DNA of 64,000 nt, taken from NCBI GenBank assembly GCA_016180645.1, contig JACPAV010000017.1, positions 1 through 64,000 of the forward strand, written 5' to 3'. The DNA is from Nitrospirota bacterium (GTDB lineage: Bacteria; JACPQY01). The notes beneath the pieces were generated by a model. The model had not been told where the DNA came from. It was given only the letters and a program-made list of their open reading frames with translations, and did not search any database. Of the stretch, positions 52,699 through 61,466 are shown in pieces. The first letter of the stretch is position 1. Each line of letters starts with the position of its first letter. The translations under genes were made by a program, and so were the position numbers.

Positions 52699-52772
52699 GA
52701 CGCAGGCTGAAGCCTGCGGCTACCGGCGATGTGAATCCTCGGTAGGCGCGGGCTTTAGCCCGCGGAAGACGC
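52699..52772. repeat. REP/MITE-like palindromic element, family 2 (split copy) in the msbA - giant-gene intergenic region
   Basis: GACGCAGGCtgaaGCCTGCGGCTACC, then a 16 nt spacer, then GGTAGGCGCGGGCtttaGCCCGCGgaagacgc. The same hairpins and GGTAG/CTACC ends as the intragenic copies at 53345 and 54538. Confidence 0.65.
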
Positions 52773-52929
52773 TCACCGGTTGCCGATGATGCTCCAAGAT
52801 TCATGATGTTCGCGCCGACGATTGTGGACTCCTGCCGTTCACCATGTGCCGCCTCAATGCGGCGGGAAAAGCCGACTGTGATTTAGGTCACAGACAGCCT
52901 TTGACAACCCGTGTAGATTTCACCACACT

Positions 52930-55900
52930 ATGCGCATGACCCCGAATCGCCTCTCGCCTTTCTTTCTGCTCACGACTTGCCTCTCGCTACTCATCATTCT
53001 TTCCTCCTGCTACCGCAAGTCCTCCGACCTGCCTCCCCGCAAGAGTGCCGGGATCTCCACTTTGGTTCCCCTGGACATTGCCGTTCCGCTCTCGCCCGAG
53101 GTGGCGGCGGCCCTCAACGGGGTGGCGGACGTGGACGGACTGGCGGCGAACGTAACGGTGAACGGTTCGCCCATGGCGGAGGGAGTGCGCGGAGGTGTGC
53201 GAGGTGGAGTTCGCGGCGCCGAGCAGGGCGGGGTGCGCGGCGGAGTGAGAGGCGGCGTTCGAGGAGCGGAACAAGGGGGTGTGCGGGGAGGCGTCCGCGG
53301 CGGAGTAAGGGGGGTGCCGGAGAGGGTTGACGCGGTAGCCGCACCCTTTACGGGTGCGTCCTCGGACGCGGGCATAAAGCCCGCGCCTACCAAGAAATCC
53401 CGTCACGTAGCCAAACGTCAGGCGTCGGGCGCTCCCGAACTCGAATATTTCTTCGAAGTGTCGATTGACATCCCGCCCGAGGGCTTCCTGGATGGCAAGA
53501 ACGATTTCAAGACCACGATCCGTCCGGCGAGCGAGGACGTGCCGCTCGTGGAAGTCAGCACGCCGGTAACGATCAAGATTCCCGCGCCCTCCGAGGATGG
53601 TGCCCCTCCTGCCGCGGGTGGGGGTGGTTTCCCTCTCGAGGTTGAGGAGACCCCCATCGCCGCCAAGGACATCCAGCTTCCCAAGTCCGAGGGATCGACG
53701 GTCTCGACGCTGGTGAAGGTCTCGGTGGCCATCCAAGAGGCGAAGGCGAGCGGGGCGACGGGGAAGGACCTCTTTTCCCAGGCAATCACCAAGACGAAGG
53801 ACGTGAGTTACAAGCCCTCTGAGGAGCAGGTGAAGGCCACGTTCAAGACCCTCGCCCAGGACCTCAAGGCGACGGTGATCGCGCAGATCAAGGCGGAGAT
53901 GGCGGAGCTTGAGGCGCTGGGAGTCGAAGGCTATACGTTCTCCGTCGAAGAGCTGGAGTCTGTCGAGATCGACGTGGAGGTGGACCTGACGGCGCCCGAG
54001 ACCATCGCCTCCATCAGTCCCGACGCCGCCGAGGAGGGGGTTCCCATCACCCTCACCGCCTCCTGTTTTGACTCCTCCGAGATTCAGTCCGTAGGGGCGC
54101 GGCATGCCGCGCCCGTCCACCGCCAGGCTGAGACGGACGAGTCCTGCACCTTTGTATGTTCGGTGAACGGCGAACCCTTCGAGTACTGCGCCTCCGGCGA
54201 GTCGGTGACGCTGCCGGCGGGAACCTACACCCTTCTTGTGGCCGCGGAGGACGAGCTGGGGAACCGGGACGAATCGCCCGTCGAGATCACCTTCACCGTG
54301 GTTCCGGGAGGCTCCTTCACCTGCGGGAACGACCTCTGCGAGCCGGGCGAGAGCGAGACGACCTGTCCCGCCGACTGCCTGGCCGTCTGTGGGGATTCCA
54401 TCTGCGAGGACGACGAGACGGTGGAGACCTGTCCCCAAGATTGCGACGTGACCGCCCCTGAGACGGAGATTACCGTGAAGCCCTTCCTGATCTCGAACTC
54501 CACCTCCGCCGCCTTCGAGTTTACCTGCGCTGACGCGGTAGGCGCACCCTTTACGGGTGCGTCTTCGGACGCAGGCGTAAAGCCTGCGGCTACCTGCGTT
54601 TTCTTCTGCCAACTCGACATCGGCACCCCCGAACCGTGCACCTCGCCCTTCAGCGCCACCGTCGGCGAGGGATTCCACACCTTCGCCGTCTACGCCGAGG
54701 ACGAATCGGGCAACGCGGACGACTCCTGGGCGTACTACGACTGGACGGTGGACCTCACCGCGTCCGACACCCAGATCCTCACCGGTCCCGCCGGTTACAC
54801 GGACGAGACGACGGCCACGTTCACGTTCAAGAGCGCGGACACAGGCGTCATCGGTTTCGAGTGCTCGTTGGACGGGGGCGCCTGGCAGGGCTGTTCCTCG
54901 CCGTACACCGCCCCGTACTCCCTCGATGCGGGGGAGCACACGTTCTTCGTTCGTGCCTACGACTCGGCGAACAACCCGGATGCCTCCCCGGCGGGGTACG
55001 CGTGGACCATCGATCTGACGCCCCCCGGCGTCTTCTTCTACAGCGGTCCCGATACGGTCACGAACGCGAGCACGGCCACGTTCGACTTCGATTCGACGGA
55101 TACAAGCGTGGAGTTCTTCACCTGCTCCCTCGACGACGGTCCCGAGATCGACTGCGATGCGCCCTACACCGTTCCGGTGACGCTCACCGAGGGCCTCCAC
55201 TGGTTCATCCTGATCGGGTACGACGTGGCGGGCAACCCGTCGTCCGCCGTGGGCTACCTCTGGATCGTGGACCAGACCCCGCCCGGCGCCGTGATCGGCT
55301 ACCCCGCGAACGCCGGGAGCTACGCCTCGGCCTCCGTCACCTCCATCACCGGCACGGCGAGCGACACGGACTCCAGCGTCCTCTTTGTCGAGATCAGCCT
55401 CAAGAGCTCAGACAACTATTACTTCGATGGATCGAGCTGGGTGACCCCCGAAACGTGGCTGATGGCGGACATCACGCCCGACCCGTCTGGGACGGATACC
55501 TGGTCCTACGACCTCCTCAGTTCGCTCTCGCCCGACAGCTACACCCTCAAGGCCGTCGCCACGGACGAGGCGTACAACGAGCAGGCCACTCCGGATCAGA
55601 TCACCTTCACCATCAGCGGGGGAGGGGATACCACCGCGCCGACCTTCGCCGGCCTCGATTCCACCAGCACCGTTTCATCGACCGAGCTCAATCTTGCGTG
55701 GATCGCCGCGTCGGACGCCGTGAGTCTTCCGGGCAACATCAGCTACGACATCTGCGAATCCACCACGCAGGGCGCCTGCGTCAGCACCTTCACGGTGAAC
55801 GCCAGCGTCGTCGGCGTCACCACCACCAACCGCACTGGATTGACCCCTTCGACCACCTACTACTACGTCGTCCGCGCCCGCGACGAGGCAGCCAACACCG

Positions 55901-58134
55901 ACACGAACGTCGTCGAACTGGGCGCCGTCACCGCCGCCGGAGGCCCGCCCACCGGCGTCGCCGTGGCGATCACCAACCACCTTGGCGACCACACCTGTAG
56001 CCTATCCGCCTCAGGCGGAGTCCAATGCTGGGGACTCAACGGTAATGGTCAGCTCGGGGACGGGACAGTGGTCAACAAGTCGACTCCGGTGGCTGTGTCC
56101 ACGCTGACCGCGGCCGCCGCCGTCGCGGCTGGGCAATATCACACCTGCGCGCTGGGATCGGACGGCACGGTCCAATGCTGGGGATTCAATACTTCGGGTC
56201 AGTTAGGGGACGGGACGACGCTGAACAAGACAACCCCCGTGGCTGTCTCGACGCTCAGCGGTGTCGTCGCCTTGGCGGGAGGGAACGCTCACACTTGCGC
56301 GCTCGGCTCGGATGGCACGGTCAAATGCTGGGGATACAACACCTATGGTGGGCTAGGGGACGGAACGACGGTGAACAAATCCACGCCCGTGGCTGTGAGC
56401 CCAGTCACGAACACCTTGGCCGTCGCCCTCGCGTGCGGGAACACCCACACCTGCGCGCTCGGCTCGGACGGGACGGTCCGATGCTGGGGATACAATGGCA
56501 ACGGTCAGATTGGGGACGGGACGACAGGCGATAAATTGACTCCCGTGGACGTCTCCTCGCTCAGCGGTGCCATCGCCGTCGTGGGAGCGGACTTTCACAC
56601 TTGCGCGCTCGGCTCGGACGGCACGGTCAAGTGCTGGGGTTTCAATGGTTCGGGTCAGCTAGGGGATGGGACGACGGGCGACAAATCGACTCCCGTGGCC
56701 GTGTCCACACTGAGCGCGGCTGTCGCCGTCGCGGCAGGGGGCAATCACACCTGCGCGCTCGGCTCGGACGGCACGGTCAAGTGCTGGGGATTGAATATGG
56801 ATGGTCAGCTTGGCGACGGGACGAACGCCGATTCATCCACCCCCGTGGCCGTGTCGACGCTCAGCGATGCGATTGCCATCGCGGGGGGCCACGATCACAC
56901 CTGTTCCCTTCTTTCCGACGGCACGGTGAAGTGCTGGGGGTACAATGCCAGTGGTCAGCTCGGGGACGGGACGTCGGCGGATAAGTTCACTCCCGTCGCC
57001 GTCACCTCCCTCACCGGCACGGTCGGCGTCAAGCGCCCCGCTCCCGCCGAGGGCGGCGGGACAGGCCGGCCCTTCCGCGAAGGGATCTCGGGGCGGCACG
57101 GCTATCACGCCTGCGCACTTCTGTCGGATGGCACGGTCAAATGCTGGGGCAATACCAGTAACATCTTGGGTTATCTCGGAGACGGCACCACCGTGGGCAA
57201 CGTGACGCCGGTAGCCGTCAGCTCCTTGTCCAACGCCGTTGCCGTGGCGGCTGGATATGACCAAAGCTGCGCACTTCTGTCGGACGGCACGATCAAATGC
57301 TGGGGGCATGGCGGGTACGGCCAACTCGGGGACGGGACAACGGCGGATCAAGTGACGCCGGTAGCTGTAGCCTCAATCTCGACCGCGATCGCCGTTGCGA
57401 CGGGGGATAGCTTCGCGTGCTCGCTCCTGTCGGACGGGACGGTTAAGTGCTGGGGGTGGAACGCCTACGGCCAGCTAGGGGACGGTACGACAACCGACAA
57501 GACAACTCCAGTCGCCGTAACCTCTCTCTCGGATGCCGTGGCCATCGCGGCTGGAGGCTATTTCCACTGTTCGCTCCTTGCGGACGGAACCGTCAAGTGC
57601 TGGGGCTACAATGCCACCGGTCAGCTTGGCGATGGGACGAACACGGATGCGTCCATTCCCGTCACCGTCAGCACCCTCACAAATGCCGTGGCCGTGTCGG
57701 CCGGCTACGACCACGCCTGCGCACTCCTCTCGGACGGGACAGCCAGGTGCTGGGGCCTCAACCTGCAAGGCAGACTTGGGGATGGTACAACCATCGACAA
57801 GTCCACCCCCGTAGCCGTCAGTTCGCTGTCGAATGCCGTAGCCGTAGACGCAGGGGGCGGTCACACATGCGCGCTCCTCTCGGACGGGACGGTGAACTGC
57901 TGGGGGTACAACGGCAGCGGCACTCTCGGGGATGGGACGAGCGCGAGTAAGTCCACCCCCGTCGCCGTCAGCACCCTTACGAATGTCGTGGCCGTCATGG
58001 CGGGAGGCTACAATACCTGTTCCATTCTCTCTGACGGAACGGCTCGATGCTGGGGCCGCAACCAAGACGGCCAACTTGGCGACGGCACCACCACCAACGC
58101 CCTCACCCCCGTCCCGGTCACGAATCTTCCGTGA
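52930..58134 (+). CDS. Giant surface lipoprotein (~1734 aa): GGVR tandem repeats, multiple Ig-like domains, cysteine-rich module, ~17 RCC1 repeats
   Basis: Signal peptide with lipobox LSSCY. The 48 nt tandem repeat (GGVRGGVRGGVRGAEQ) shows synonymous variation between copies. Repeated ~90 aa domains ATFxFxSxD...CSLDGG...GxHTFxVxAxDxxGN. From ~55980 on, ~17 repeats of DGTVKCWGxNxxGQLGDGTT...TPVAV (RCC1/beta-propeller blades). Confidence 0.8.
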   Translation: MRMTPNRLSPFFLLTTCLSLLIILSSCYRKSSDLPPRKSAGISTLVPLDIAVPLSPEVAAALNGVADVDGLAANVTVNGSPMAEGVRGGVRGGVRGAEQGGVRGGVRGGVRGAEQGGVRGGVRGGVRGVPERVDAVAAPFTGASSDAGIKPAPTKKSRHVAKRQASGAPELEYFFEVSIDIPPEGFLDGKNDFKTTIRPASEDVPLVEVSTPVTIKIPAPSEDGAPPAAGGGGFPLEVEETPIAAKDIQLPKSEGSTVSTLVKVSVAIQEAKASGATGKDLFSQAITKTKDVSYKPSEEQVKATFKTLAQDLKATVIAQIKAEMAELEALGVEGYTFSVEELESVEIDVEVDLTAPETIASISPDAAEEGVPITLTASCFDSSEIQSVGARHAAPVHRQAETDESCTFVCSVNGEPFEYCASGESVTLPAGTYTLLVAAEDELGNRDESPVEITFTVVPGGSFTCGNDLCEPGESETTCPADCLAVCGDSICEDDETVETCPQDCDVTAPETEITVKPFLISNSTSAAFEFTCADAVGAPFTGASSDAGVKPAATCVFFCQLDIGTPEPCTSPFSATVGEGFHTFAVYAEDESGNADDSWAYYDWTVDLTASDTQILTGPAGYTDETTATFTFKSADTGVIGFECSLDGGAWQGCSSPYTAPYSLDAGEHTFFVRAYDSANNPDASPAGYAWTIDLTPPGVFFYSGPDTVTNASTATFDFDSTDTSVEFFTCSLDDGPEIDCDAPYTVPVTLTEGLHWFILIGYDVAGNPSSAVGYLWIVDQTPPGAVIGYPANAGSYASASVTSITGTASDTDSSVLFVEISLKSSDNYYFDGSSWVTPETWLMADITPDPSGTDTWSYDLLSSLSPDSYTLKAVATDEAYNEQATPDQITFTISGGGDTTAPTFAGLDSTSTVSSTELNLAWIAASDAVSLPGNISYDICESTTQGACVSTFTVNASVVGVTTTNRTGLTPSTTYYYVVRARDEAANTDTNVVELGAVTAAGGPPTGVAVAITNHLGDHTCSLSASGGVQCWGLNGNGQLGDGTVVNKSTPVAVSTLTAAAAVAAGQYHTCALGSDGTVQCWGFNTSGQLGDGTTLNKTTPVAVSTLSGVVALAGGNAHTCALGSDGTVKCWGYNTYGGLGDGTTVNKSTPVAVSPVTNTLAVALACGNTHTCALGSDGTVRCWGYNGNGQIGDGTTGDKLTPVDVSSLSGAIAVVGADFHTCALGSDGTVKCWGFNGSGQLGDGTTGDKSTPVAVSTLSAAVAVAAGGNHTCALGSDGTVKCWGLNMDGQLGDGTNADSSTPVAVSTLSDAIAIAGGHDHTCSLLSDGTVKCWGYNASGQLGDGTSADKFTPVAVTSLTGTVGVKRPAPAEGGGTGRPFREGISGRHGYHACALLSDGTVKCWGNTSNILGYLGDGTTVGNVTPVAVSSLSNAVAVAAGYDQSCALLSDGTIKCWGHGGYGQLGDGTTADQVTPVAVASISTAIAVATGDSFACSLLSDGTVKCWGWNAYGQLGDGTTTDKTTPVAVTSLSDAVAIAAGGYFHCSLLADGTVKCWGYNATGQLGDGTNTDASIPVTVSTLTNAVAVSAGYDHACALLSDGTARCWGLNLQGRLGDGTTIDKSTPVAVSSLSNAVAVDAGGGHTCALLSDGTVNCWGYNGSGTLGDGTSASKSTPVAVSTLTNVVAVMAGGYNTCSILSDGTARCWGRNQDGQLGDGTTTNALTPVPVTNLP
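53345..53402 (+). repeat. REP/MITE-like family 2 element inserted in-frame inside the giant gene (copy A)
   Basis: GGTAGCCGCACCCtttaCGGGTGCGTCctcgGACGCGGGCataaaGCCCGCGCCTACC. Translated as AVAAPFTGASSDAGIKPAPT. Confidence 0.7.
54538..54595 (+). repeat. REP/MITE-like family 2 element inserted in-frame inside the giant gene (copy B)
   Basis: GGTAGGCGCACCCtttaCGGGTGCGTCttcgGACGCAGGCgtaaaGCCTGCGGCTACC. Translated as AVGAPFTGASSDAGVKPAAT. Sits between two Ig-like domain repeats. Same flanking tgacgc as copy A. Confidence 0.75.
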
Positions 58135-58153: not shown

Positions 58154-58239
58154 TTCGTAGGGGAGACTTCGTAGGGGAGCAGCTTTAGCTGCTCCCTCCT
58201 CTTGGGAGGACTTGGGAGGACCTAAAGGTCCTCCCCTAC
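58154..58239. repeat. REP/MITE-like family 1 element (with internal short duplications) immediately after the giant-gene stop
   Basis: cttcgtaggggaga + cttcGTAGGGGAGCAGCtttaGCTGCTCCCtcctcttgggaggacttGGGAGGACCtaaaGGTCCTCCCCTAC. Homologous to the element at 10-70. Confidence 0.7.
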
Positions 58240-58254
58240 AATTCATCCGCTTCG

Positions 58255-58554
58255 TTGCACTACACCTGTTCCCTTCTCTCCGACGGCACCGTCAACTGCT
58301 GGGGGTCCAATCTGTACGGCCAACTCGGCGATCGCGCTGAGCGCGACTCGCGCCCCGCTCAGCGGGACGACGGCGAACAGATTGACACCGGTTCCGGTGC
58401 CCAATCTTCCGTGACCCGTGGTCCGTTCTTCGTAGCGTCCGGTTTCATACCGGACGATCTTCCGCCCCGTGTAGAACGGGGCGCTACGAGTTCTTCTTGC
58501 GCGCCACTGGCCACGTCCTCCCTCACCCCGGTCTCCGCAACAAGCTTGCCCTGA
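58255..58554 (+). pseudogene. Diverged duplicate of the giant gene's terminal RCC1 repeat and C-terminus, disrupted by a 34-nt palindromic insert
   Basis: Begins HYTCSLLSDGTVNCWGSNLYGQLGD, a complete RCC1 blade. After the insert CGCGCTGAGCGCGactcgcgcccCGCTCAGCGGG the alternate frame reads ANRLTPVPVPNLP*, matching the real C-terminus TNALTPVPVTNLP* at 58134. Confidence 0.65.
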
Positions 58555-61256: not shown

Positions 61257-61328
61257 AGAGCGGGATGATGGGGGTCACTCTTAGGGACTGATCCCGCGGC
61301 GTGTGGCGCCACGGGATCCTCGCTCCTT

Positions 61329-61375
61329 GTAGGCGCAGCCTTCAGGCTGCGTCCGCATCGCGGGCTAAAGCCCCA
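61329..61375. repeat. REP-like family 2 element (inverted orientation, lacks one terminus) in the GGDEF - acyl-CoA dehydrogenase intergenic region
   Basis: GTAGGCGCAGCCttcaGGCTGCGTC cgcatc GCGGGCtaaaGCCCC. The reverse complement aligns with 52699-52724 and 52741-52765. Confidence 0.6.
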
Positions 61376-61466
61376 TGCCACGGAGGGTATGGGACCATGA
61401 TATGTCGCCGCACCACGGATGGTGCGGCATGGAACATGGCCCGCGGCTACCGAATGTCCGAGGATT

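Follow-up and report, generated by a model that had tools for sequence, protein, structure and literature searches.

In a 64,000-nucleotide (nt) stretch of DNA from a metagenome-assembled genome (MAG) of an uncultured groundwater Nitrospirota bacterium (contig JACPAV010000017.1, positions 1 to 64,000; hereafter, the window), a gene encoding a giant lipoprotein carries two copies, A and B, of a short palindromic element that are translated together with the rest of the gene. We consider it highly probable that these elements are doublets of GTAG-type repetitive extragenic palindromic (REP) sequences, or REPINs, that is, non-autonomous selfish repeats that landed in coding sequence. An earlier note on this DNA, made from the sequence alone, is partly supported by the present analysis: its interpretation was right in kind (a REP element, in frame, from a mobile family) but overstated both the rarity and the function of the elements.

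The two in-gene copies described in that note do exist and share one frame of the lipoprotein open reading frame (ORF), but copy A starts at 53334 rather than at 53345, that is, 11 nt away from the position first given, and copy B is shifted by 1 nt (Table 1). Each copy is 58 nt long and consists of two inverted units of about 25 nt with their heads outward (GGTAGS...SCTACC); in each unit, GGTAG and one variable base precede a GC stem of 7 perfect base pairs, which closes on a 5-nt loop (TTTAC, and ATAAA or GTAAA). An 8-nt spacer separates the two hairpins within a copy; the 9-bp stems, the TTTA loop and the tcg spacer originally read from the sequence have to be replaced accordingly. Copy A, for example, reads GGTAGC-CGCACCC-TTTAC-GGGTGCG-TCCTCGGA-CGCGGGC-ATAAA-GCCCGCG-CCTACC. 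Folded as single-stranded DNA, copies A and B reach -20.2 and -23.1 kcal/mol, respectively, with z-scores of -4.8 and -6.5 against shuffled sequences. The unit pattern, GGTAGSCGCRSSCTTN{2,3}GSSYGCG, matches six times in the window and not once in 100 dinucleotide-preserving shuffles; the GGTAG head is present on all six exact units and on every unit from the other genomes, as the pattern itself demands, and a decayed copy has TGTAG. Both stems are perfect in copies A and B, and the two stem differences between them compensate each other and fall on synonymous third codon positions. Neither copy holds a stop codon, the TAG of GTAG being read as G-GTA-G, and the encoded peptide consists of small residues (Ala, Gly, Ser, Pro, Thr).

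Both copies are indeed preceded by the same TGACGC (53328-53333 and 54531-54536), together with which they form a 64-nt direct repeat of 91% identity. This hexamer could be a trace of gene conversion between sites A and B or, alternatively, point to a larger, 63-nt (21-codon) mobile unit. [quoted passage not shown] MITEs are 70-300 bp long, with terminal inverted repeats of 15-30 bp and a target-site duplication; the 58-nt copies lack long terminal inverted repeats, only GGTAG/CTACC and one variable base being complementary at their termini, and no direct repeats are visible in the sequence flanking the in-gene element.

Compared with paralogs and with repeated domains, the copies inside genes represent in-frame extensions of loops or linkers. 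The host lipoprotein combines a signal peptide with a lipobox, GVRGG repeats, Ig-like (Big_13-type) domains, an fn3 domain and 14 RCC1 blades. According to locus tags and accession ranges, its best homologs are paralogs in the same MAG, namely, P0002 (HYT87_14550), P0018 (HYT87_18440), P0004, which is encoded on the same contig as P0002, and P0001, the accession number of which lies within the range spanned by the HYT87 locus tags; the treatment of P0001 and P0002 as orthologs was dropped on the same grounds. The paralogs are alike at the N-terminus (lipoprotein signal, GVRGG repeats and Ig-like domains with paired cysteines) and differ in their C-terminal propellers. Presence and absence of the copies were seen within this set of paralogs and their repeated domains.

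Copy B is inserted into the second Ig-like domain, at a connection between two strands that takes the form of a Cys-x4-Cys loop in the Cys-paired domains. This connection spans 5-6 residues in 14 of the 18 aligned Ig-like domains and 22 residues in the second domain of the window protein as well as in its counterparts in P0002 and P0018; in P0001, the loop at this site is 10 residues long, without REP-like DNA. In an AlphaFold model built with the 18-domain alignment, insert B is predicted to be disordered, an unstructured coil with a predicted local distance difference test (pLDDT) score of 58-63, and the surrounding beta-sandwich scores 90-97. Copy A follows the GVRGG repeats, within the low-complexity region at the N-terminus. 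It is present at the homologous place in P0004, where the upstream flanks are recognizably homologous as well (VRG(V/T)P(E/S)RV), and absent there in P0001, P0002 and P0003. P0004 contains a copy at a third site, C, between MopE-type Cys repeats, and the sister repeats lack it.

The same peptide recurs in unrelated proteins. A profile of the peptide, run against 1.84 billion representative proteins, produced 26 matches. In addition to HYT87_14550 and HYT87_18440, the peptide was found twice in MBI2060918, once in a glycoside hydrolase family 77 (GH77) 4-alpha-glucanotransferase, upstream of the catalytic domain, and in a CheA-like hybrid kinase, between the Hpt and dimerization domains. Judging by the accession range, all these proteins probably belong to the same MAG, so that at least eight in-frame translated doublets are distributed over six of its proteins, cytoplasmic ones included. 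A further, unrelated FG-GAP propeller protein from a Joint Genome Institute (JGI) metagenome carries two copies. Its DNA (L125) contains both hairpins, perfect in one set and with slight decay in the other, and the spacer is shorter than in the window by exactly one codon.

Antigenic variation, which the earlier note had raised as a possible function, is unsupported because the module occurs in cytoplasmic enzymes; indiscriminate insertion followed by purifying selection fits this distribution better than a function specific to surface proteins. [quoted passage not shown] A homology search with a 63-residue concatenation of the peptides returned 56 word-sharing candidates, none of them with E <= 10, and the exact doublet sub-type has a single match in JGI metagenomes, which is intergenic. 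In the glucanotransferase and the CheA-like kinase (P0020 and P0024), the peptide is part of a longer common module, GEGM-VAAPFMGASSDAG(M/V)KPAPT-PSPSKGEG, and the sequence suggests a composite element with an extra outer hairpin (CCCTCCCC...GGGGAGGG).

Outside genes, the unit belongs to a widespread REP family. In the window, units of this family occur at four places, which include, in addition to the two in-gene doublets with outward heads, the intergenic copies reported previously, namely, one pair between the ABC-transporter gene and the giant gene and a decayed unit with its partner (Table 1). In the pair, the GTAG heads face each other, 16 nt apart, the loops are 4 nt long, and the fold reaches -26.7 kcal/mol (z -6.0). 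The decayed copy is identical in an independent Logan assembly (L001).

A scan with the unit, covering one genome per bacterial species, identified it in at least 120 stretches of at least 82 assemblies, with 153 unit matches listed. Among the matches listed, which also underlie the counts that follow, the scan labels include Planctomycetota, Nitrospirota, Ignavibacteria/Kapaibacteria, Calditrichota, Acidobacteriota, Desulfobacterota, Omnitrophota, Aerophobetes, Cloacimonadota, Armatimonadota, Chloroflexota, Verrucomicrobiota and others, and the GC content of the hosts ranges from 33 to 73%. The arms are perfectly complementary in 145 of the 153 matches although the pattern does not demand complementarity. 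CGCAGGC/TTYA is the dominant variant, and CGCGGGC and CGCAGGC are both common variants of the family. There are 33 clear doublets, with spacers of varying length. At the same 120 loci, 13.7% of the units fall into long open frames, compared to 69.9% of random positions, which is a strong bias against coding sequence, and those apparent in-frame exceptions that were inspected turned out to lie upstream of genes or in spurious GC-rich frames. Thus, the characterization of the repeat as REP-type (GTAG head, GC hairpin, inverted doublets, mostly extragenic elsewhere) stands.

Clustering of the ORFs from the scan loci yielded only one recurrent small family, which consists of four proteins, about 155-185 residues long, that have an HUH motif and an NPVR...Y region. 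All four match the NCBIfam model NF047646, 'REP-associated tyrosine transposase' (RAYT), with E-values from 1e-17 to 3e-28, two of them reaching the curated cutoff, and all four match Pfam Y1_Tnp. A REP unit directly flanks the RAYT gene in L036, L071 and L079, the classical REPtron arrangement, and lies 1.4 kb away from it in L053. The flanked RAYTs are only 23-40% identical to one another. The 24-nt unit, GGTAGCCGCAGGCTT(T/C)AGCCTGCG, is almost invariant in the same set of at least 82 assemblies and many phyla; it is unusual for a REP sequence to be so constant across phyla.

The closest match among the known systems is the GTAG-tagged REP super-family (Di Nocera, De Gregorio & Rocco 2013, BMC Genomics 14:522; PMC3733652). 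The shared features are the GTAG head, the GC stem of 6-9 bp, the short loop, inverted pairs with variable spacers, a mostly extragenic location, in many cases immediately behind a stop codon, RAYT genes with the repeats on their flanks, and a minority of copies inside ORFs. In that work, intragenic REPs are documented in several species; over half of these REPs are dimers that encode 20-30 residues, sometimes twice per ORF, and the inserts are argued to sit in flexible linkers or loops. In-frame GTAG-REP dimers were thus cataloged already in 2013 (PMC3733652), and the notion that they are uncommon is not supported. Moreover, single units of GTAG-1 from Pseudomonas encode AGKPAPT (PMC3733652), which is close to the DAGIKPAPT of the copies described here. 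There are also differences: the elements described here come from the MAG of an uncultured Nitrospirota bacterium, the genes affected encode giant lipoproteins whereas DNA-repair genes are stressed in PMC3733652, and the unit is near-identical across many phyla. We place the unit at the level of the super-family rather than in one of the 24 numbered families. A full-text search for the repeat sequence retrieved a single paper with the 12-mer, which concerns an unrelated DNAzyme biosensor.

The classic in-frame insertions are the Rickettsia palindromic elements (RPEs), reportedly described by Ogata et al. in 2000. The likeness lies in the way of working: in both cases, palindromic selfish repeats are found in frame within still-functional genes, in many genes of one genome, with the encoded peptide located away from the protein core. 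The elements described here show the traits of this type, being located within an intact ORF, with the frame kept and the peptide in a loop or linker. With about 100-150 nt, RPE-1 exceeds them in length. The hosts differ too, the bacterium studied here being free-living, unlike the obligate intracellular RPE host with its reduced genome. The shorter intragenic R. conorii repeats RPE-4 and RPE-6 are assigned to the CGTC-tagged rather than the GTAG super-family (PMC3733652), so that sequence membership of the present copies in the RPE families is unlikely.

The REPINs and RAYTs of Pseudomonas and Enterobacteria (Bertels & Rainey; PMC8049555, PMC5581495) are similar in that the inverted doublet is the replicating unit, the RAYT gene is flanked by REPs, and slightly differing copies carry compensating stem variants. 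However, these REPIN populations are described as extragenic and specific to a genus or species (PMC8049555, PMC5581495), in contrast to the copies in coding sequence, the occurrence of the 24-nt unit across phyla and the divergence of the flanked RAYTs described here.

The scenario that we consider most likely is the following. The elements belong to a REPIN family of the kind that RAYTs, which are HUH/Y1 tyrosine transposases related to IS200, are thought to mobilize via single-stranded hairpins. Insertions into gene interiors would usually be lost, and the survivors are those that keep the frame, with GTAG read as above, encode small residues and sit in loops or linkers that tolerate 18-20 extra residues. 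A RAYT would then have moved the copies in the giant gene as well, and the protein would be expressed with its inserts. The copies themselves would be neutral or close to it, and their most likely status is that of a near-neutral passenger rather than an adaptive part of a surface protein.

Several observations weigh against this scenario. The 58 nt from GGTAG to CTACC are not divisible by 3. No RAYT gene was found within the 64-kb window; a transposase of this type, which the earlier note proposed to look for, adjoins the unit in other genomes. All intragenic copies seen belong to the 5-nt-loop sub-type, which accounts for only 21 of the 153 units among the matches listed, the protein search being biased to this sub-type and its frame. 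Finally, the insert at site B is 75-90% identical among the three paralogs that share it, compared to only 55-59% for the flanking domain (one-sided Fisher p = 0.003, for one pair). An old neutral passenger should have decayed, and the insert is better kept than its flanks, with perfect hairpins in the window copy. Selection, gene conversion or fast-evolving flanks could each account for this conservation.

It is possible, although we tentatively think otherwise, that the copies stem from a few ancient events, that is, from one or two old insertions that were multiplied by gene duplication and gene conversion, including conversion between A and B, rather than by repeated transposition. Site B is indeed common to three RCC1-type paralogs, and site A to the window gene and P0004; furthermore, A and B both carry the extra TGACGC, which is foreign to the family consensus and absent from the copies in L125. 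However, site C of P0004, the glucanotransferase, the CheA-like kinase and the two sites in the FG-GAP protein, which comes from another sample, are independent sites. Such a history would explain the multiplication among paralogs but not the nature of the element, which we continue to regard as a GTAG-type REP doublet.

We consider it unlikely that the in-gene REPINs are exapted elements kept for a hairpin function. At the mRNA level, the hairpins might act in translational pausing, RNase protection or targeting; at the DNA level, they might provide RAYT- or recombination-dependent crossover points at which modules are shuffled among the lipoprotein paralogs. The conservation of the site B insert relative to its flanks speaks for such a role, as do the perfect stems with their compensating, synonymous differences and the location of copies at homologous positions in paralogs with differing C-terminal propellers. 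The apparent compensation may, however, reflect different source copies, given that CGCGGGC and CGCAGGC are both common in the family, and the presence of the module in a cytoplasmic glucanotransferase and a chemotaxis kinase leaves nothing surface-specific about it. In a mosaic test, in which similarity to each paralog was traced segment by segment, no clear switch was detected at the REPINs. The window contains two terminator-like sites compared to 3.1 in shuffled sequences, neither of them a REP hairpin, and a search against Rfam gave only two matches, with E-values above 1, far under the gathering thresholds, and no credible family.

More doubtful still is a cosmopolitan REPIN sub-type adapted to gene interiors and maintained as a recombination or regulatory site in the giant lipoproteins. 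The intragenic copies do share traits that would suit such a sub-type, namely, 5-nt loops, comparable spacers that differ by whole codons and one frame that yields small, flexible residues, and active maintenance would explain both the intact hairpins and the better conservation of the insert compared to the domain around it.

That the segments are ordinary conserved coding sequence, a functional peptide motif with incidental DNA palindromy, is highly improbable. Paralogs do share the conserved peptide at site B, yet copies outside genes are present in the window, in at least 82 further assemblies, where the 24-25 nt unit occurs in non-coding DNA and beside RAYT genes, and downstream of a paralog that probably belongs to the same genome, with two units directly after the stop codon of P0001 (L002). 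In addition, the segment is missing from most homologous domains, is predicted to be unstructured and appears in unrelated protein families. We see just as little chance of an artifact or of decay, be it a metagenome mis-assembly at the repeat or a pseudogene gathering repeats: the exact 1734-residue product and a version two codons shorter at the start are both missing from the protein collection, and many REPs, together with a frameshifted second copy of the last RCC1 blade, crowd the 3' end of the locus, but 58 nt is less than the length of a sequencing read, both flanks of copy B form one confidently modeled beta-sandwich domain, the ORF is open over 1734 codons, with all three in-gene GTAG elements (see below for the third one) keeping the frame, and paralogous proteins annotated by NCBI carry the same module.

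Taken as GTAG-type REP doublets, the elements represent a known phenomenon for which both the host lineage and the host protein family are new, and extend the catalog of selfish DNA inside protein-coding genes past the genomes surveyed in 2013, to an uncultured groundwater Nitrospirota. For annotation, this means that VAAPF(T/M)GAS.DAG.KPA.T, where it occurs in a protein from a MAG, is the sign of a REP doublet rather than of a domain. The pairing of a near-invariant 24-nt unit with diverged RAYTs may matter more, for how RAYT-REP pairs persist or spread.

Table 1. The REP doublets of the window, their host gene and related features
Feature	Position	Strand	Description
Host gene	52930-58134	+	Lipoprotein ORF of 1734 codons; frame shared by copies A and B
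REP doublet (REPIN), copy A	53334-53391	+	In frame; codons 53332-53391 encode AVAAPFTGASSDAGIKPAPT, residues 135-154
REP doublet (REPIN), copy B	54537-54594	+	In frame; codons 54535-54594 encode AVGAPFTGASSDAGVKPAAT, residues 536-555
Insert peptide			VDAVAAPFTGASSDAGIK
Intergenic unit pair	52701-52764		52701-52724 (-) GGTAGCCGCAGGCTTCAGCCTGCG; 52741-52764 (+) GGTAGGCGCGGGCTTTAGCCCGCG; between ABC-transporter gene and giant gene
Decayed intergenic copy	61328-61385	+	TGTAGGCGCAGCCTTCAGGCTGCGTC with a degenerate partner hairpin that lacks the CTACC end; z -2.0
Single GTAG hairpin, different family	54091-54114	+	GTAGGGGCGCGGCATGCCGCGCCC; in frame, Cys-x4-Cys loop of first Ig-like domain
Copy-carrying proteins besides the window gene			HYT87_14550, HYT87_18440, MBI2060918, MBI2059507, MBI2061140

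Nearly all GTAG hairpins of the window fall within 6 kb around the giant gene, and several of them differ from the family described above. The third in-gene element is a single hairpin of a different GTAG family; the loop that contains it spans 26 residues in the window protein compared to 4 in the paralogs. Doublets of a second GTAG family, with GTAGGGG and a 9-bp hairpin (for example, GTAGGGGAGCAGCTTTAGCTGCTCCC), occur at 11-69 and 58155-58240, the latter directly 3' of the stop codon that ends the giant ORF. Hairpins of a related GTAGGGG type are located behind the stop codon of P0001 (L002) and beside units of the family studied here in the Caldimicrobium loci L042, L084 and L089. A third kind of GTAG doublet, GTAGCGTCCGGTTTCATACCGGAC...GTCCCCGTGTAGAACGGGGCGCTAC-like, is present at 58432-58487, in the same 3' region.

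Between these two doublets, 3' of the stop codon and the REP doublet that follows it, a second copy of the last RCC1 blade, ending with ...TPVPVPNLP*, extends from 58255 to 58412; at 58331-58362, an insert of 31 nt that forms a double hairpin (fold z -3.3) shifts its frame. This blade copy looks like the remnant of a duplicated or displaced gene end. Within the gene itself, imperfect tandem repeats, GVRGGVRGGVRGAEQ, occupy positions 53150-53320 in the N-terminal region of the lipoprotein, and their motif is kept in P0001-P0004 and P0018. Farther downstream, at 57033-57098, a 20-residue segment, KRPAPAEGGGTGRPFREGISGRH, breaks the 150-nt RCC1 periodicity exactly between blades 7 and 8. A palindromic insertion of 60 nt was considered for this segment and rejected, given its position between the two blades, its non-significant fold (z -1.2) and its presence in P0002 and P0018 (ARPFRKGLDGG and ARPFREGLSGG, respectively); we read it as a linker between two seven-bladed propellers.

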